DNA of 21,640 nt, taken from assembly GCA_011388275.1 (NCBI GenBank), contig DSAB01000082.1, positions 1-21,640 on the forward strand. The letters are read 5' to 3'. The stretch is from a bacterium (GTDB taxonomy: Bacteria > Zhuqueibacterota > QNDG01 > DSAB01). The notes beneath the pieces were generated by a model. That model saw nothing but the letters and a program-made list of their open reading frames with translations. It was not told the origin of the DNA and ran no database searches. This document shows, piece after piece, positions 4,752 through 21,382 of the stretch; the first letter of the stretch is position 1; each line of letters begins with the position of its first letter. A program made the position numbers and the translations under genes.

Positions 4752-5699
4752 TTATTCGATTGACATCAGATATCCCATCATGGCATTGATACTGCCTATG
4801 GCCAGGGCAATGCTCGTATCCGCGGCACCGTAATACAGATTCAGAGTATCGCCATCCGGGGCGATGGTATAACCGCACGGAAAAACCACATGGTCTACAT
4901 CGCCGCGTCGCTCGTAAGGTTCTTGAGGTCCGAAAATCCACTCGTCACTGCGTTTGATACAAATCTCCGGTCTGTTTAAATCAAACAGGGCCAGACCGAG
5001 CCGGTAGATAGAACCTGCTGCGTTTTGCCGCACACCGTGGTAGATGACCAGCCAGCCTTTTTCGGTTTTAATCGGAGGAGGAGAGAGCCCGATCTTATTC
5101 GCGTCCCACCAAGACCCGCGCCTGGCTTTCAACATGAGCCTGTGATCCCCCCAATGATGCAAATTGGACGAATAAGATATCCATATGTGAGCTCCGCTGT
5201 GATGGGAACTAACCGGACGATGGATCAGGGCCCAATTTCCATTGATCTTTTCAGGCAGAAGAACCGCGTCCTTATCTTCCGGCTGCAGGATCAGGCCATA
5301 CCGTTCGAAATTGTAAAAATCCTCAGTAAGCGCCAGGGATACACCCGGGCCTTCACGCGTGAAGGAGGTGTAAACAACAGCGTACTTGTTGAACGTTTCA
5401 AGAAAAGTAATACGCGGATCTTCAATACCCCATATTTCTTCCGGGTATTGCTTCGGATCAGGCATCAGCGTCGGCTCGGTATCGATCTTCCAGCCGTTGA
5501 TTCCATTATCGGAACGGGCTGCACATAAGTGAGAATGTCCGCGTCTGTCCTCGACACGGCACAAGAGCAGTGTCACGCCGTCGGGCAGCAATACTGCGGC
5601 GGGATTGAACACACTGTTGACCGGGTACGGCCACTGGGCGGCGGTCAGAATGGGGTTGTTTTCATGTCTTCGAAAGAGCTCGGAATGTGGATTCGTCAT
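4752..5699 (-). CDS. Glycoside hydrolase family 130 protein (beta-mannoside phosphorylase / glycosidase-related)
   Basis: N-terminus FRRHENNPILTAAQWPYP...VFNPAAVLLPDGVTLLLCRVED...GIEDPRITF is the characteristic GH130 five-bladed beta-propeller start. 315 aa. Its start overlaps the upstream gene's stop in ATGA (translational coupling). Confidence 0.8.
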   Translation of the reverse strand: MTNPHSELFRRHENNPILTAAQWPYPVNSVFNPAAVLLPDGVTLLLCRVEDRRGHSHLCAARSDNGINGWKIDTEPTLMPDPKQYPEEIWGIEDPRITFLETFNKYAVVYTSFTREGPGVSLALTEDFYNFERYGLILQPEDKDAVLLPEKINGNWALIHRPVSSHHSGAHIWISYSSNLHHWGDHRLMLKARRGSWWDANKIGLSPPPIKTEKGWLVIYHGVRQNAAGSIYRLGLALFDLNRPEICIKRSDEWIFGPQEPYERRGDVDHVVFPCGYTIAPDGDTLNLYYGAADTSIALAIGSINAMMGYLMSIE

Positions 5700-7978
5700 G
5701 TGCTTGGGGTCTCCTGTTTGATGAAATTATTGCTGGCCAACCGTAGTTCCAGCAGGGCCTGAAGAAAGGCCAGAGTCGATTCCGCGCCCTGGTTTCCGTT
5801 CGCACTATCGGGATGCAAACCATCCCGGCAGCCTCCTGTCACCGGATCGTAGAGAGGAAGGTTCAGGTCATTGCGTCCGAGGAACCACTCAAAGGCGCGG
5901 CGGGCTTCATCACGCCAATGTTTATCGGCAGTTATCCTGTAGGCCTCCAGACAACATGAGACCATTGTCTGTGCTTCGACCGGCTGTTGATCGAAACGGG
6001 CTTGTTCTCCACCTTTCATATAAAACCCATTGGATCCAACGGGAACAAAATGTCCCTGGTCCGCGTGTTGCAGGGCGGCCAGCCACTGAAGTGAATCCAA
6101 TCCGGCTTCAGTCATTGTCGTATCCGATAATGTTTTACCGCACAAGAGCAGGGCGTGGGGCAGTACGGCGTTACAGTACGTCAACCGGTCTTCATACCAG
6201 CGCCACTTATCCGTTCGATGGTTTTGATACAATGTCAGCAGCCGCCCGGATAATTCTTCGCAGACCTGGTAAGCCCGGCGGTCACCGGCAAATCGTTGCA
6301 AATATTCCTGAATACCCATGATTGCGAAAGCCCAGGCACGGGGGCTGGAGGTGTTGAGAATGGCGGGTAAGGCTTGCTCGAATACCCAGCCTGCCATACT
6401 GTGCAAAGCACTTGTGTTCGATTTGCCCAACACCGTGCCCAAAGCCCACAATGTACGGCCGTGGCTGTCGTCGGAACCGGTTTCTTCAATCCATCGGTGC
6501 TGGTAATCCATAAAGTTGCGGAACCGCCCGTTTTCTGTGTTAAAGGCATACCAGATGAAAGCCAGATAGCGCGTACCCAGATGTATCGCCGCTTCGTTAT
6601 CCAGGACTTCCAGGTATGTGCTGACAATAAGTGCGCGGGCGTTGTCATCAATCGTATACCCTTCACGATAGTTGGGGATGGTGAAAATGGCATGCTGCAT
6701 AATGCCGGTTCCATCCGTCATATGATGCAGATGGTCCAGTTTAAGAGGCGGCAACTCACCTGGACGTTTATCCAGTGGTTTGACCGCAAAGCCCGAATGG
6801 GCAAAATGCCGACGCTCCCTGCGTGTGCGTTCAAAACTTTCCATATAGCGGTTCGCTACCTGGGGCCAGATCATCTTCCGGGTAAACACATAGGCTTTCT
6901 TGCGCATGGCGTGACGCCGGGATTCACTGTCCAGAAGGCCGATCACCTGATCAGCCAGGGCGGCCGGGTCCCGGAACGGCACGAGCTTTCCCCGTCCGTC
7001 GGCAAGCATTTCTTCAGCATACCAGTAGGGTGTTGAAACCACCGCTTTACCGGCACCCAGTGTATAGGCGAGAGTCCCGGAGGTGATTTGTGCCTCATTG
7101 AGATAGGGTGTGATGTAAATATCCGCAGTACTGATAAATTCAATCAGCTCTTCCGTGCTGACAAATCGATTGTAGAAGATGACCTGACCTTCCACACCCT
7201 GGTCCCTGGCAAGCCGTTCCAGTGACAGCCGGTATGTTTCACCCTCATTCTGTAACACATGAGGGTGTGTGGCCCCCAGGACCATATATACAACATTCGG
7301 ATGCCGGGTCAGAATGGCGGGAAGCGCAGAGATGACATTTTCAATGCCTTTGCTTGCCGAAAGCAAGCCAAAGCTGAGAAGAACGATTTTCCCCTCGACT
7401 CCAAACAAATCTTTATGATAACTGGAGTCGACAAAGGGAACATCCGGGATGCCGTGATGAATAAAATCGATTTTCTCCGAAGGCACGCCGTAGATATCCC
7501 GCAGAAATTCTGCGCCCCGTTGACTCATGACAACGAGCCGGTCAGACAGTTCGGCGATTTTTTGCAGAACGCATTTTTGATCGCGATCGGGCTCACGCAG
7601 AATGGTATGCAGCGTTGTGACGATGGGTACACGCAAATTATGAAGGAGCTCCAGGATGTGACTGCCCGCGGTTCCCCCAAAGATACCGTACTCATGCTGC
7701 AGGGATACGAGATTCACATTGTTGATGTTCAGGAAGTCAGCCGCACGGCGATAGGAATGGATGTCTTTCTCCTGAAGTTCAAAACGGACACGCGCCGGAT
7801 AGGCATAACCGGCCTTGGTATCATTGACCGGCAGGGCAATGCAGGTGGTTTGACGATATCGGGTGGCGATGGACTCACACAGATCAGTGGTGAACGTGGC
7901 GATGCCGCATTGCCGCGGCAGGTAATTACCGATGAACGCGATACGATCGAGCATGGAACGATTTGAATTTTGGTTCAT
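5696..7978 (-). CDS. Two-domain protein: an N-terminal GT4 glycosyltransferase (about 410 aa) fused to a C-terminal (alpha/alpha)6-barrel glycoside-hydrolase-like domain (about 350 aa). The ORF runs to 7984 with a TTG. I prefer ATG 7978, which sits 9 nt after AAGGGG.
   Basis: GT4 C-terminal signature YLNEAQITSGTLAYTLGAGKAVVSTPYWYAEEML (E-x7-E-like / G-rich donor-binding) and N-terminal RIAFIGNYLPRQCGIATF. The C-terminal half (DNARALIV, GRTLWALG, QGAESTLAFLQALLEL) resembles GDE_C/GH63/GH100-type toroid hydrolases. The exact family is not resolved. Confidence 0.7.
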   Translation of the reverse strand: MNQNSNRSMLDRIAFIGNYLPRQCGIATFTTDLCESIATRYRQTTCIALPVNDTKAGYAYPARVRFELQEKDIHSYRRAADFLNINNVNLVSLQHEYGIFGGTAGSHILELLHNLRVPIVTTLHTILREPDRDQKCVLQKIAELSDRLVVMSQRGAEFLRDIYGVPSEKIDFIHHGIPDVPFVDSSYHKDLFGVEGKIVLLSFGLLSASKGIENVISALPAILTRHPNVVYMVLGATHPHVLQNEGETYRLSLERLARDQGVEGQVIFYNRFVSTEELIEFISTADIYITPYLNEAQITSGTLAYTLGAGKAVVSTPYWYAEEMLADGRGKLVPFRDPAALADQVIGLLDSESRRHAMRKKAYVFTRKMIWPQVANRYMESFERTRRERRHFAHSGFAVKPLDKRPGELPPLKLDHLHHMTDGTGIMQHAIFTIPNYREGYTIDDNARALIVSTYLEVLDNEAAIHLGTRYLAFIWYAFNTENGRFRNFMDYQHRWIEETGSDDSHGRTLWALGTVLGKSNTSALHSMAGWVFEQALPAILNTSSPRAWAFAIMGIQEYLQRFAGDRRAYQVCEELSGRLLTLYQNHRTDKWRWYEDRLTYCNAVLPHALLLCGKTLSDTTMTEAGLDSLQWLAALQHADQGHFVPVGSNGFYMKGGEQARFDQQPVEAQTMVSCCLEAYRITADKHWRDEARRAFEWFLGRNDLNLPLYDPVTGGCRDGLHPDSANGNQGAESTLAFLQALLELRLASNNFIKQETPST

Positions 7979-8016
7979 ATACAAAAACCCCTTGTTTGAA
8001 GACCGGTTTCTGTCTT

Positions 8017-8250
8017 CTATTTTTCTTTCATCGTAATGATATCCTGCGGGGGAACGTCCATGGCAACGGTTCTCAAACTCACCTTCACCATGCGGTCGAT
8101 GAAAGGGATGAGTAAAATCAATCCGGGTCCTTTAAACCCGATCATTCGGCCCAGACGGAAGATTACACTCCTCTCATATTCTTTCAGAATACGGATTGCA
8201 CTCGCTATAATTAACAGGATGATTATAATAACAGGAATTAGCCATGTCAT
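8017..8250 (-). pseudogene. Truncated stomatin/SPFH (band-7) family gene. Only the first 74 codons are present.
   Basis: The N-terminal TM helix [16 protein letters not shown] followed by [53 protein letters not shown] is the canonical start of the SPFH domain. An in-frame stop follows after KEK. Full-length stomatins are at least 250 aa. SD AAGGAG and the ATG are intact. Confidence 0.7.
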
Positions 8251-8394: not shown

Positions 8395-8679
8395 CTAGTA
8401 ACGCCGGTCTCCGGCCCGGGTTTTTCCGAATCGTTCAGACCGTGCATGGGCCTCGTTGACCTTAAGGTTTTGTCCGATTATCTCCTTGCCGTTCAGACCA
8501 TCGATTGCGGACTGAGCTTCTTTTTTTGAAGGCATCTCTACGAAACCAAACCCGCGGGGTTCGCCGCTGTGTTTATCCTTAATCACATTGACAGTTCCAA
8601 CCTGCCCGAAAGCCTCAAAGGTTTTTTTCAGGATATCTTCGGTGACACTGCTTGCCAGATTGCCTACATAAATTTTCAT
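8395..8679 (-). CDS. RNA-binding protein with a single RRM (RNP-1/RNP-2) domain and a Gly/Arg tail
   Basis: RNP-2 IYVGNL and RNP-1 RGFGFVEM. 94 aa with a C-terminal RSERFGKTRAGDRRY tail. SD AAAAGGAG 6 nt before the ATG. Confidence 0.9.
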   Translation of the reverse strand: MKIYVGNLASSVTEDILKKTFEAFGQVGTVNVIKDKHSGEPRGFGFVEMPSKKEAQSAIDGLNGKEIIGQNLKVNEAHARSERFGKTRAGDRRY

Positions 8680-10481: not shown

Positions 10482-11777
10482 ATGACGTTTAATCAATTTA
10501 TTCTGGATTCACGTATCCATCAGGGCATTAAAAATTCAGGTTATATAACCCCAACACCCATCCAGGAAAAGGCCATTCCCCTGGTTCTGAGCGGTAAGGA
10601 TATACTCGGGCTGGCTCAGACCGGAACTGGAAAAACAGCGGCTTTTATTCTGCCGATTCTTCAACGATTGCTCCAAGGACCGAAAAAGCGGGTTCGCGCT
10701 CTGATTCTCGCTCCGACCCGGGAGCTTGCCGAACAGATCTTTCAGGCCGGTGTCGATCTGGGGAAACACACGGGGATACGCAGCCTCTCCATATATGGCG
10801 GAGTCAGCAAGAGTCCCCAGCTGGCTGCACTGAAACGGGGCGTAGAGATCGTTGTCGCCTGTCCGGGCCGTCTTCTGGATCATCTGAGGGAGGGGAACAT
10901 CGATCTGTCGCATGTGGAGGTCCTTGTTCTGGATGAGGCCGACCGGATGTGCGACATGGGCTTTCTTCCTGACATACGGAGGATTCTGAAGGCTCTTCCT
11001 TTCGAGAGACAGACCCTGTTCTTTTCCGCGACCATGCCCGATGAGATACGCGGTCTGGCTGATCAGATTCTGCGTAATCCGGAGACGGTTCAGATCGGAA
11101 TGATCGCGCCGGCTGCCACGGTCTCTCATGCTGTATATCCGGTTTCGGTCGATTTGAAAAAGCCGTTGCTCTTTGCAATTTTAAAACAGACGGCTACAGG
11201 CCGTGTGCTGATTTTTACACGGACCAAACACAGGGCCAGGACACTGGCCGCGCAGCTGGGCAAGAGGGATTATAATGTTTCGGCTCTTCAGGGGAATATG
11301 ACTCAGAACCGCCGGCAGGAGGCCATCAATGGATTCCGCAGCGGCAAGTACGACATCCTCGTCGCCACGGACATCGCTGCCCGGGGCATCGATGTGTCCG
11401 AGGTCTCTCATGTGATCAACTATGATATGACAGACACCGTGGATGCCTATACTCATCGTATCGGTCGAACGGGAAGGGCGTTGAAAAACGGAGATGCTCT
11501 TACTCTGGCAGTCAGGGAGGATGAGCCGCTGCTCAGAAGTATCGAAAAAGTCCTGGGTGCTCCTATCAGGCGGCAGCGTCTGGCGGGTTTTGATTACGGG
11601 TCCTTTATCCCGGAAAGTCAGTCTGTCCGGAAACCTGTGTTCAGGGGAACGGGCAGCAGGAAACCGAAGCATGGATCTGCGCCTTCCAGCGAGCCGGGTA
11701 CCAGGACGCGTATTCAACACGGCCATGGAAAGCGCCGGAATCATTCGGGCCGCAGCGTTGTACGGCAACCTAATTGA
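10482..11777 (+). CDS. DEAD-box ATP-dependent RNA helicase (RhlE/CsdA-like) with a basic C-terminal tail
   Basis: Q-motif region, motif I AQTGTGKTAAF, Ia PTRELA, II DEAD, III SAT and VI HRIGRTGR. 431 aa with an Arg/Gly/Ser-rich tail. SD AAAAGGAG. Confidence 0.92.
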   Translation: MTFNQFILDSRIHQGIKNSGYITPTPIQEKAIPLVLSGKDILGLAQTGTGKTAAFILPILQRLLQGPKKRVRALILAPTRELAEQIFQAGVDLGKHTGIRSLSIYGGVSKSPQLAALKRGVEIVVACPGRLLDHLREGNIDLSHVEVLVLDEADRMCDMGFLPDIRRILKALPFERQTLFFSATMPDEIRGLADQILRNPETVQIGMIAPAATVSHAVYPVSVDLKKPLLFAILKQTATGRVLIFTRTKHRARTLAAQLGKRDYNVSALQGNMTQNRRQEAINGFRSGKYDILVATDIAARGIDVSEVSHVINYDMTDTVDAYTHRIGRTGRALKNGDALTLAVREDEPLLRSIEKVLGAPIRRQRLAGFDYGSFIPESQSVRKPVFRGTGSRKPKHGSAPSSEPGTRTRIQHGHGKRRNHSGRSVVRQPN

Positions 11778-13731: not shown

Positions 13732-16431
<2,700 letters not shown>

Positions 16432-19519: not shown

Positions 19520-21382
19520 GTGAGTTTCATGTTGGATCCTGCTTGTGATATCAGGAATGTTCTGGTTGTGGGCAGCTGGGCCAAAGAGCAGATTACGCTG
19601 GAAAACCTGAACCGGTACGGTCAGTACAATCTCTATGCCTATATGGACACATCCAATCCGGCCGTTATCCGGCTGGTTCAGGACCATGCGATCGGAAAAT
19701 TTTCAAATATACAGCGCATCGCGGATTTTGCCCGGGATAAAGAGATCGATATTGCCCTGATTACCGCGGCCGCGCCTCTGGATGCGGGGCTCACCGATCT
19801 TTTGGAATCCCGGGGAATCACCTCTTTCGGGCCTGACCGCAGGGCCGCGCAGCTCGAGGCCAACAAGGCGTTTACCCGGCGCCTCATGAAAAAGTATGTT
19901 CCCAGGGCGATTCCCGAATTCGAGGTTTTTTCAAGCGCCGAAGATGCCGTCGATTACGCGCGGCAGATGGACTGGAAAGTGGCCGTGAAACCCCTGGGGC
20001 TGACCGACGGCCTGGGTGTTCGGGTTTATGGCGAACAGCTGGAAAACGCGGAAGCCATAGCCGATTATATCCACTATATTATCGATGAAGCCTATTCCGG
20101 ACACCCGGAAGTCATTATCGAAGAGAAGCTGGAAGGAGAAGAGTTCACGCTGCAATGTTTGGTGAACGATCTGTCGCTTGTGAATACGCCTTCGGTGCAG
20201 GATTTCAAGAAGCGGTTGCCCGGCGATCGGGGTGTGAACACGGCCAGTATGGGTTCCTGTTCGGACACGGATCATATGCTGCCGTTTCTGGGTTTCGCCG
20301 ATTATCAGGAGGCTTTTCGAATTATGCGGGAGACCCTGCAGGCATTCAGGAAAGAGACAGGGGGCATCTGCCGGGGGTTTCTCTACGGGCAGTTTATGAT
20401 CACGGATCAGGGCGTCAAGCTCATTGAATACAACTTCCGGCCCGGCGACCCGGAGTGGATCAATGTGATGTTTCTGCTGGAGGAAGACCTGCTGAACGGA
20501 GTCAAGGCGGTCTTACGGGGAGAGGAGACCAAGCTGAAATTCAGGAGGCGGGCAACCGTGTGCAAGTATATCGTTCCTCCTGAATATCCCATGAAACTCT
20601 ATCAGACTCTGGACGTGGCTTTTGATGAGGAGGAATTGAATCGTTCCGGAGCCCGTGTTTTTTTCAGCTGCGGTCAAGACAGCAGCGAGCGGCTTCAGGT
20701 GGGTTCGGAACGCGGTCTGGCGTTTATCAGTGAGAGTGAGAAAATTTACACGGCGTATAAGCGGGTCGAACGGACCATCCGCATGGTGCAGGGAGATTTT
20801 TATCACCGCCGCGATATCGGAACGCAGGCCATGGTCCGCAGAAAGATCCGTCATATTGAAAAAGTCCGGAAAGTGCGGGTACAAGAGCCGGTTTTTCAGC
20901 GGGCATCGGAGGCGGATTTTCTCGAGGTCTTTGATATGGTGTCGAAAATGCCTCCTCTGGAACCGTATCAACCGCATTTATTCAAGATCATTCTGAGATA
21001 TTTTCAAAACACCTGTTTTGTCGCCCGGTGCGGAGACCGTCTGGTCGGTTGGGTGATGGGTTTCCGTGACCAGACAAACCCTGAAACCTATTTTCTGTGG
21101 CAGATCGGCATTCTGCCGGCGATGCAGGGCAGCGGATTGGGCACGAGTCTGATGAAATATGTCGTGAAAGAGATGGCGGAAGCCGGTGCCGGGCGGATCG
21201 AGGCAACCATCGATCCGGAAAACACCGCGTCTCAAAAATTGTTTGAAAAACAGGGATACCGGAATATCAGCCGTTGTATCGGTGAAACGGCCAGTCTATG
21301 CGGCAATCAGGCGGTGATCGATTATTACGGGCCGGGAAGACATTTTATGGTGTATGAAAAAATCCTGCAAGAAACGAAGTGA
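19520..21382 (+). CDS. Fusion protein: a complete PurD-like ATP-grasp ligase (GARS N/A/C domains, about 450 aa) joined to a C-terminal GNAT N-acetyltransferase domain (about 160 aa)
   Basis: Segments align to E. coli PurD as I remember it: FGPDRRAAQLEANKAFTRRLM, VIIEEKLEGEEFTLQ, QDFKKRLPGDRGVNTASMGSCS and GFLYGQFMITDQGVKLIEYNFRPGDPE. The PurD GxGGREHA motif is replaced by GSWAKEQI. The C-terminus carries GNAT motif A (MQGSGLGTSLM) and a CoA-binding core. SD GGGGAAAGGAG, 40 bp after the ATPase stop. Confidence 0.85.
   Translation: MSFMLDPACDIRNVLVVGSWAKEQITLENLNRYGQYNLYAYMDTSNPAVIRLVQDHAIGKFSNIQRIADFARDKEIDIALITAAAPLDAGLTDLLESRGITSFGPDRRAAQLEANKAFTRRLMKKYVPRAIPEFEVFSSAEDAVDYARQMDWKVAVKPLGLTDGLGVRVYGEQLENAEAIADYIHYIIDEAYSGHPEVIIEEKLEGEEFTLQCLVNDLSLVNTPSVQDFKKRLPGDRGVNTASMGSCSDTDHMLPFLGFADYQEAFRIMRETLQAFRKETGGICRGFLYGQFMITDQGVKLIEYNFRPGDPEWINVMFLLEEDLLNGVKAVLRGEETKLKFRRRATVCKYIVPPEYPMKLYQTLDVAFDEEELNRSGARVFFSCGQDSSERLQVGSERGLAFISESEKIYTAYKRVERTIRMVQGDFYHRRDIGTQAMVRRKIRHIEKVRKVRVQEPVFQRASEADFLEVFDMVSKMPPLEPYQPHLFKIILRYFQNTCFVARCGDRLVGWVMGFRDQTNPETYFLWQIGILPAMQGSGLGTSLMKYVVKEMAEAGAGRIEATIDPENTASQKLFEKQGYRNISRCIGETASLCGNQAVIDYYGPGRHFMVYEKILQETK

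Follow-up and report, generated by a model that had tools for sequence, protein, structure and literature searches.

What does a bacterium make, or take apart, with a glycosyltransferase that is fused to a hydrolase-like barrel and translationally coupled to a predicted mannoside phosphorylase? The question is raised by a pair of genes on the minus strand of contig DSAB01000082.1 (GenBank assembly GCA_011388275.1), a stretch of 21,640 nucleotides from a bacterium of the Zhuqueibacterota that was analysed whole and is referred to here as the window. The upstream gene joins a glycosyltransferase family 4 (GT4) domain to an (α/α)6 six-hairpin domain of an uncharacterised family; the downstream gene encodes a protein of glycoside hydrolase family 130 (GH130). 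We hold, with slightly less than even confidence, that this two-gene, three-module operon works in the cytoplasm to make and turn over a mannose-containing intracellular sugar, an oligosaccharide or a glycoside, that serves as a reserve or a stress protectant. The features of the module, all on the minus strand, are as follows.

5696..7978, minus strand: fusion gene of 760 amino acids, GT4 plus YPO2471-type (α/α)6 domain (open reading frame, translation and database identity)
6809..7978, minus strand: GT4 domain (GT-B fold, retaining family), approximately residues 1–390 (PF13439 and PF00534)
5699..6796, minus strand: (α/α)6 six-hairpin domain, residues 395–760, of an uncharacterised family related to PDB entry 7TEM
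4752..5699, minus strand: GH130 family protein of 315 amino acids, predicted cytoplasmic β-mannoside phosphorylase with a β-1,2-type signature (PF04041)
5696..5699, minus strand: ATGA in which the stop codon of the fusion gene overlaps the start codon of the GH130 gene (read in the sequence)
5711..5715, minus strand: AGGAG Shine–Dalgarno-like motif of the GH130 gene, within the 3' end of the fusion gene (11-nucleotide spacer to the ATG)

Both reading frames and the ATGA at 5696–5699 could be read directly in the sequence, where an earlier note, made from the sequence alone, had placed them. The same note described the fusion as a single polypeptide of 762 residues; it is one fused reading frame, but its length is more likely 760 residues. 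The longest frame (5696–7984, minus strand) reaches 762 residues when counted from an upstream TTG that lies merely 3 nucleotides from an AAGGGG Shine–Dalgarno-like motif, whereas the ATG at 7978 has this motif 9 nucleotides upstream; because of this spacing, and because an identical protein of 760 residues is present in the databases (P0001, 'MAG TPA: glycosyltransferase [bacterium]'), the ATG at 7978 is the likely true start. A hydropathy scan of both proteins (Kyte–Doolittle, 19 residues; maximum 1.5) revealed no hydrophobic N-terminus, signal peptide or membrane-spanning segment, which predicts that both are soluble proteins of the cytoplasm. No RNA family was matched in an Rfam scan, and a promoter and terminator scan gave counts equal to those of shuffled sequence.

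The coupling of the two genes extends far beyond the window. Homologues of the fusion number more than 8,000 in protein databases (the best 120, labelled from many phyla, are 78–83% identical), and a scan of 185,579 species, each represented by one genome, confirmed relatives in at least 570 species-level genomes. Among the best 80 of these, 73 had at least 1 kb of downstream sequence and could be evaluated; a GH130 orthologue (65–76% identical) lay directly downstream, on the same strand and starting within 250 nucleotides, in 66 of the 73, and in one further genome a GH130 gene lay 1.1 kb from the fusion. This synteny, which bears out the conservation that the earlier note proposed to look for, spans more than 10 phyla, including Chloroflexota, Acidobacteriota, Bacteroidota/Ignavibacteria, Fibrobacterota, Leptospira and deltaproteobacteria, and where overlap could be counted (the 67 loci whose alignment starts at residue 1) the two genes overlapped by exactly 4 nucleotides in 33 and by 1 nucleotide in 8. 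With more than 8,000 fusion homologues and the pair intact in 66 of 73 genomes, the pairing is far beyond chance. Clustering of open reading frames around 80 genome loci and 33 metagenome loci of a sister clade (clade B), in which a transporter, a guanylyltransferase and a phosphomannomutase were sought, revealed no third conserved neighbour; outside the GH130 genes and a second GT4 in clade B, families (regulators, RRM proteins, stomatin) recurred in at most approximately 10 of the 80 loci. As no other neighbour is conserved, the pair is a self-contained unit amid variable surroundings. The fusion itself is 59–79% identical across the 80 species genomes (69% in Leptospira), and such unusual conservation between phyla (60–83%) could stem from frequent horizontal transfer or from strong constraint, such as membership of a large complex would impose.

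To which chemistry, then, does the GH130 protein point? Its family assignment stands as first made: PF04041 matches residues 26–310 of the 315 at E = 8e-54 (183 bits against a cut-off of 26). In phmmer comparisons the characterised enzymes lie at roughly equal distances from it, with TM1225 (β-1,4; 182 bits, E = 2e-52) as the best PDB match, followed by Lin0857 (β-1,2; 165 bits), Uhgb_MP (β-1,4; 165 bits) and Teth514_1789 (β-1,2; 164 bits), and with scores of 158–165 bits against the GH130 β-1,2 enzymes. It falls below all NCBIfam equivalog cut-offs (227.6 against 550 for NF050092 and 194.5 against 450 for NF052550), which indicates a distinct, uncharacterised subgroup. The catalytic aspartate is D94, in the motif EDPR, which aligns with the DPR of TM1225 and Uhgb_MP and the EDAR of Lin0857 and is equivalent to Uhgb_MP D104; the HRP, KIG and YHGV motifs and the tyrosine that follows, which we take to be the phosphate site, align with TM1225, Uhgb_MP and Lin0857. 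E93, D94 and K143 are invariant in 104 GH130 orthologues, and the E93/K143 pair is matched by Lin0857 and Teth514_1789, the corresponding residues being Y and R in TM1225 and Uhgb_MP. The residue before the catalytic aspartate is a published determinant of linkage (E136 in Uhgb_MS versus Y103 in Uhgb_MP), paired with a second (K184 in Uhgb_MS versus R150 in Uhgb_MP), the glutamate orienting the mannose in the +1 subsite for β-1,2 bond formation (PMC12814180). An E/K pair at these positions is the published mark of β-1,2/β-1,3 enzymes, the β-1,2 phosphorylase subfamilies GH130_4 and GH130_6 among them, and Y/R that of β-1,4 enzymes. Because the E93/K143 pair is as in these determinants, we predict specificity for β-1,2 (or β-1,3) mannosides. 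Absence of a signal peptide has been used as a criterion for phosphorylases in this family, which need cytoplasmic phosphate (PMC7660257), and the window protein is accordingly a predicted phosphorylase rather than a hydrolase. All tested β-1,2 GH130 phosphorylases also use GDP-mannose weakly, a reaction whose physiological relevance is doubted (PMC12814180); the length of loop L2, considered as a predictor of GDP-mannose use, was set aside as not discriminating, since the window protein has the long type that is found in Lin0857, Uhgb_MS and Uhgb_MP.

A phosphorylase of this kind could also belong to a route for catabolic salvage, in which GH130 would phosphorolyse imported β-mannosides and the resulting mannose-1-phosphate would be converted to GDP-mannose and passed by the GT4 to glycoconjugates. 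There is published precedent, as a Thermoanaerobacter cluster combines GH130, GT4 and a mannose-1-phosphate guanylyltransferase and the same pathway was proposed for it (PMC4264767), and the roles given in the literature for every characterised GH130 phosphorylase are catabolism or salvage (PMC7660257, PMC8950772). We nevertheless consider salvage unlikely here: 80 genome and 80 metagenome loci show no conserved gene beside the pair for a transporter, an extracellular glycosidase or a guanylyltransferase, the context varies while the pair is constant, and salvage leaves the fusion of the GT4 to the barrel, and its translational coupling to GH130, unexplained. Synthesis and turnover of an intracellular mannoside is thus the reading that we carry forward to the other two domains.

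The N-terminal half of the fusion belongs to GT4, as had been supposed, with both Pfam models scoring above their gathering cut-offs across residues 25–363 (PF13439 at residues 25–177, 42.5 bits against 28.5; PF00534 at residues 193–363, 63 bits against 26.4). The nearest PDB sequence is PimA, a GDP-mannose mannosyltransferase, at an E value of only 1.4e-8. K210 (in SASKGIENV) aligns with the phosphate-binding K202 of PimA (in RKG) and is invariant in 25 homologues, and E295 sits one position from E274, the first glutamate of the PimA EX7E motif. The second glutamate of this motif (PimA E282), which binds the nucleotide ribose in PimA and MshA (PMC9883506), aligns without a gap with an invariant tyrosine, Tyr305. 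The fold and family assignment stands, as judged from the sequence, despite this departure from EX7E. Separately, in two homologues of 560–570 residues (P0126 and P0130) the barrel is preceded by just one half of the GT4, the N-terminal Rossmann domain, and the donor-binding half is missing; these may be real or mis-called genes.

GT4 enzymes are common in lipopolysaccharide, exopolysaccharide and glycolipid pathways, and the automatic name given by JGI to many of the homologues is 'glycosyltransferase involved in cell wall biosynthesis', so an operon acting within cell-envelope or exopolysaccharide biosynthesis has to be weighed. The fusion does have NCBIfam similarities to the EpsE, WcaI and PEP-CTERM glycosyltransferases, but the scores are weak (20–47 bits against cut-offs of 260–620), and nearby there are no conserved envelope genes, such as those for a flippase, a polymerase or a polyprenyl-phosphate transferase. 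Neither protein has membrane segments, and GH130 phosphorylases need the phosphate of the cytoplasm (PMC7660257). We regard an envelope role as very unlikely and retain the intracellular mannoside cycle.

The C-terminal half (approximately residues 395–760) is the least familiar part of the module. It has no Pfam or NCBIfam match even at E ≤ 1, and the window protein likewise has no match at this threshold to PF06202, PF03200 or PF12899, the models for the families (GDE_C, GH63 and GH100) to which the earlier note had likened it. When 40 diverse members were scanned against Pfam at E ≤ 10, the only matches were sub-threshold ones to the six-hairpin clan (five to C5-epim_C, five to GH88 and two to GH76), with none to GDE_C, GH63, GH100 or GlcNAc_2-epim; a repeat scan of 10 members did not recover the C5-epim_C matches. 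Among PDB sequences, phmmer found a single relative, 7TEM (E = 5e-9, or 2e-24 with a family profile), a structural-genomics entry for the 'putative exported protein YPO2471' of Yersinia pestis, for which no paper was found in the literature library searched. An AlphaFold model of the domain, built on an alignment of 40 diverse sequences (predicted local distance difference test, pLDDT, 94.2; predicted template modelling score, pTM, 0.92), has twelve helices, one short and N-terminal and eleven long, forming the (α/α)6 double barrel of the six-hairpin superfamily; this domain model was used in place of a full-length model, which was built on a shallow alignment (78–83% identity) and reached a pLDDT of 54. 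Its nearest structural neighbour is again 7TEM (comparison figure 39.2, with a root-mean-square deviation of 2.2 Å over 329 residues). Sequence and modelled structure thus both place the barrel with a YPO2471-like family. The toroidal, glycoside hydrolase-like domain that the earlier note described is therefore upheld at the level of the (α/α)6 fold only, and its being a hydrolase is not supported; the three named families drop out, having no hidden Markov model (HMM) match and not being the closest structural neighbours.

This family is large. When 1.84 billion representative proteins were searched exhaustively with HMMER (E ≤ 1e-3), barrel relatives were returned in 4,985 clusters at 50% identity; of the best 150 clusters, 59 were of fusion size (700–830 residues) and 59 of stand-alone size (330–470 residues), and those stand-alone proteins that carry a source name are labelled 'hypothetical protein'. 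Residues invariant or nearly so across the family comprise, in domain numbering, D50, D51, R54, D110, R114, R153, W198, W200, E202, Y207, N209, D269, Q270, Q271, W304, D325, N335 and E339. In the model, most of these, the list without Y207, N209 and W304, map to the N-terminal starts of alternate helices or to the loops just before them, the face on which six-hairpin enzymes place their active sites, and a set so rich in carboxylates, arginine and tryptophan fits a sugar-processing pocket.

What the pocket does is less easily read. The characterised structural neighbours closest to the barrel are cellobiose 2-epimerases (comparison figures 30.4 and 30.1) and a glucose 2-epimerase (29.2), followed by a GH76 α-mannanase (28.9), GH9 (28.9), a mannose isomerase (28.9), and AGE and YihS (28.6), with MmpH (24.9), GDE (21.5), a GH100 invertase (21.1), the GH63 enzymes YgjK and GgH (20.8 and 20.2) and the cyclisation domain of the cyclic glucan synthase Cgs (20.0) more distant. 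The barrel could therefore work without hydrolysis, for instance by epimerising or isomerising a sugar, and prepare the substrate of GH130 or convert it. A model for such a partnership exists in mannan catabolism, in which cellobiose 2-epimerase turns β-1,4-mannobiose into mannosyl-glucose for the GH130 mannosylglucose phosphorylase. The barrel of the window, however, has neither sequence nor HMM similarity to AGE and lacks its catalytic histidines: no AGE-type barrel-helix histidine was found among the conserved residues, the sole conserved histidines (H22 and H35) lying before the barrel, and the GH130 partner, unlike that of the epimerase-linked system, is without the β-1,4 signature. We consider an epimerase or isomerase decidedly unlikely and infer that the barrel is a hydrolase or transglycosylase, as the mannoside cycle would have it.

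Do the three modules belong to one pathway? Rearranged versions of the operon bear on this question. A 919-kb metagenome contig (L085) encodes a stand-alone barrel of 381 residues, then a GH130 with a 4-nucleotide overlap and then a GT4 of 459 residues, with the GH130 67% identical to that of the window and the GT4 51% identical to the N-terminal half of the fusion; at two further loci (L168 and L171) a stand-alone barrel is followed by GH130. The clade B fusions have C-terminal domains approximately 50–53% identical to that of the window and no orthologous GH130 downstream, but a gene for a 485-residue GH130-like protein (with an N-terminal extension of approximately 250 residues whose fold is unassigned) lies downstream in 16 of 33 loci, a 345-residue GT4 is next in 7 of the 33, and a second GH130, of 311 residues, is present in 4 of the 14 loci listed in full. 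One lineage has gone further, with a protein of 1,122 residues (P0184) that places a class I mannose-6-phosphate isomerase before the GT4 and the barrel (2.9e-13 to 1QWR and 4.6e-11, below cut-off, to TIGR00218); this triple fusion is followed by a 369-residue GH130 on a 264-kb contig (L172 6001–10579, GCA_022843145.1). A candidate reading of P0184 as a fusion of GH130, GT4 and barrel was rejected, its extra N-terminal domain being the phosphomannose isomerase. Because these fission and fusion variants keep the modules together, they argue, from sequence, that the barrel, GH130 and GT4 act in one mannose-involving pathway.

Other arrangements were also seen. Four clade B loci (L089, L110, L130 and L147; for example, L130 4729–10563) contain a four-gene operon of fusion, 485-residue GH130-like protein, 345-residue GT4 and 311-residue GH130. 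Fragments of a PfkB sugar-kinase gene lie near the triple fusion in L172. In other proteins (P0188, at L173 6001–8283, and P0178) the fusion partner of the barrel is a GFO/IDH/MocA oxidoreductase or a BD-FAE/α-β-hydrolase esterase, and one stand-alone barrel (L169 742–3610) lies between genes for a universal stress protein and an OpuAC glycine-betaine-binding protein, an osmotic-stress context.

In favour of the intracellular mannoside reading, all three modules look cytoplasmic, neither transporter genes nor envelope machinery accompany them, and one lineage has added an isomerase. Domain identities, fold, overlap, synteny, fission and fusion variants, the β-1,2-type signature and the single-lineage isomerase fusion are established here; the donor, acceptor and product, the chemistry of the barrel and the physiological role we infer. 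The GT4 would use a nucleotide sugar, most plausibly GDP-mannose, to lay down an α-linked primer or cap. GH130 would then reversibly add and remove β-mannose, probably in β-1,2 linkage, by way of α-mannose-1-phosphate and phosphate and possibly, to a weak extent, GDP-mannose, and the barrel, working as a hydrolase or transglycosylase, would trim, recycle or size-limit this same glycan. The compact synthesis or turnover module proposed in the earlier note is in keeping with the data in this mannose-linked, cytoplasmic form: the β-1,2-type signature, the triple fusion with the isomerase and the lack of neighbouring transporter or envelope genes all fit.

Several points weigh against this reading. 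A retaining GT4 forms α linkages and an inverting GH130 acts on β linkages, such that the two cannot share a linkage and a mixed or primed glycan must be assumed. Replacement of the ribose-binding glutamate by Tyr305 may mean that the GT4 has an atypical donor. Because the best GH130 match is to the β-1,4 enzyme TM1225, the predicted linkage specificity depends on two residues. No phosphomannomutase or guanylyltransferase is linked to the pair, and the one lineage with the isomerase fusion is the exception to this lack of mannose-supply genes. As for the barrel, its closest characterised structural neighbours are epimerases and isomerases and not hydrolases, its family has no member of known substrate, product or activity, no curated HMM and a solved relative that is unannotated, and two stand-alone barrels (L169 and L086) have neither GH130 nor GT4 nearby.

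A broader proposal is possible, although we consider it less likely than not: that many environmental bacteria, in the phyla of the synteny set, run an unrecognised intracellular mannoside cycle, in which the YPO2471-like barrel would be the obligate partner of a new β-1,2-type GH130 subfamily and the GT4 would prime or cap the glycan, the whole being a bacterial counterpart of the mannogen of Leishmania or the methylmannose polysaccharide of mycobacteria. More radical still, the barrel might be a transglycosylase or cyclase, or the GT4, being without the ribose-binding glutamate, might take the mannose-1-phosphate made by GH130 directly. If the preferred reading is right, the six-hairpin domain (approximately 5,000 clusters, a single crystal structure that is unannotated, and no curated HMM) would constitute a new carbohydrate-active enzyme family, and a large uncharacterised GH130 subgroup would gain a physiological role. 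That an operon ties GH130 to a glycosyltransferase, with a phosphomannose isomerase added in one lineage, speaks for a genuine role in biosynthesis or cycling, and the module makes the question of whether GH130 has such a biosynthetic role in bacteria directly testable. Its presence in at least 570 species-level genomes of many phyla, at 60–83% identity, would then suggest that the sugar is a common intracellular one among bacteria of soil, sediment and groundwater. Enzymes that form β-mannosides are, moreover, sought for glycan synthesis.

How did the module come to lie beside a broken gene? Immediately upstream, outside the module, is the following feature.

8017..8250, minus strand: truncated stomatin/Band_7 gene of 77 amino acids, N-terminal part only (PF01145)

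The fragment matches positions 2–54 of the 176 in the PF01145 profile and is 81% identical to residues 1–73 of an intact stomatin of 260 residues at a related locus (L004), whose module has approximately 72% nucleotide identity to that of the window. The order at L004 is RRM protein, intact stomatin, a KhpA-type KH protein of 92 residues, fusion and GH130 (L004 4507–5775 for the stomatin and KH region); in the window it is RRM protein, stomatin residues 1–73, fusion and GH130. The earlier note held that a stomatin gene appeared to have been disrupted where the module sits. The truncation is real, but the module is not indicated as its cause: insertion into the stomatin gene was rejected in view of the intact stomatin beside the same module in L004, and for the same reason the window lineage most likely lost approximately 1.2 kb, comprising the rest of the stomatin gene and the KH gene, by deletion, as judged by comparing the two loci. 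The intergenic DNA of the window and L004 gave no alignment that would place the deletion junction.

The gene for the RRM-type RNA-binding protein (8395–8679, minus strand) lies just upstream of the fragment, and a DEAD-box helicase gene (10482–11777, plus strand) is nearby. Of the 80 loci, 8 carry an RRM gene, and 5 a stomatin gene, no more than a few genes away from the module, a weak signal that the module may favour a stress-related neighbourhood. Elsewhere in the window, a 620-residue protein (19520–21382, plus strand) is an unusual fusion of a PurD-like (GARS) ATP-grasp domain with a C-terminal GNAT acetyltransferase, and an 899-residue protein of the S9 prolyl-oligopeptidase family (13732–16431, minus strand) has an extra, precomputed DUF3108 match on the matching public contig.

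Is the module, finally, a variant of something already described? Literature searches that combined GH130 with GT4, with mannoside synthesis and with operon or biosynthesis found no description of it. The cyclic glucan synthases likewise combine a glycosyltransferase, an (α/α)6 domain and a phosphorylase. In the cyclic β-1,2-glucan synthase Cgs, however, these are GT84, an (α/α)6 cyclisation domain and GH94, the sugar is glucose and one linkage type serves all modules; Cgs is, moreover, a membrane protein with no sequence relationship to the window module. The stand-alone YPO2471 (7TEM) is annotated as exported, whereas its relative in the window is cytoplasmic, fused to a GT4 and coupled to GH130.

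Mycobacteria offer a precedent for pairing a GT4 enzyme (ManT) with an (α/α)6 hydrolase (MmpH), which recycles methylmannose polysaccharide (PMC9883506). ManT, a GDP-mannose α-1,4-mannosyltransferase, and MmpH, an endo-mannosidase, are products of separate genes that are accompanied by methyltransferases and not by GH130, all linkages are α, and MmpH and the window barrel are unrelated in sequence. With the GH130 β-1,2 phosphorylases (Lin0857, Teth514_1788/1789 and Uhgb_MS) the window protein shares its family, the catalytic aspartate, the E/K pair of the +1 subsite and a cytoplasmic location, and the Thermoanaerobacter cluster likewise links GH130 genomically to a GT4 (PMC4264767). In the window, by comparison, the partner is a GT4–barrel fusion, and there is no ABC transporter, GH5 or guanylyltransferase. 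The mannogen of Leishmania, an intracellular β-1,2-mannan reserve, is handled by enzymes of GH130-like fold that use GDP-mannose and mannose-1-phosphate (PMC10913872, PMC12814180), but this cycle is eukaryotic and runs on GT108 mannosyltransferase/phosphorylases with no GT4 or (α/α)6 partner. Set against these systems, the GT4 family, the GH130 family and the six-hairpin fold are known already; what is new is the YPO2471-like barrel family, its deep and widespread coupling to GH130, and the fused, translationally coupled architecture in which the two occur.

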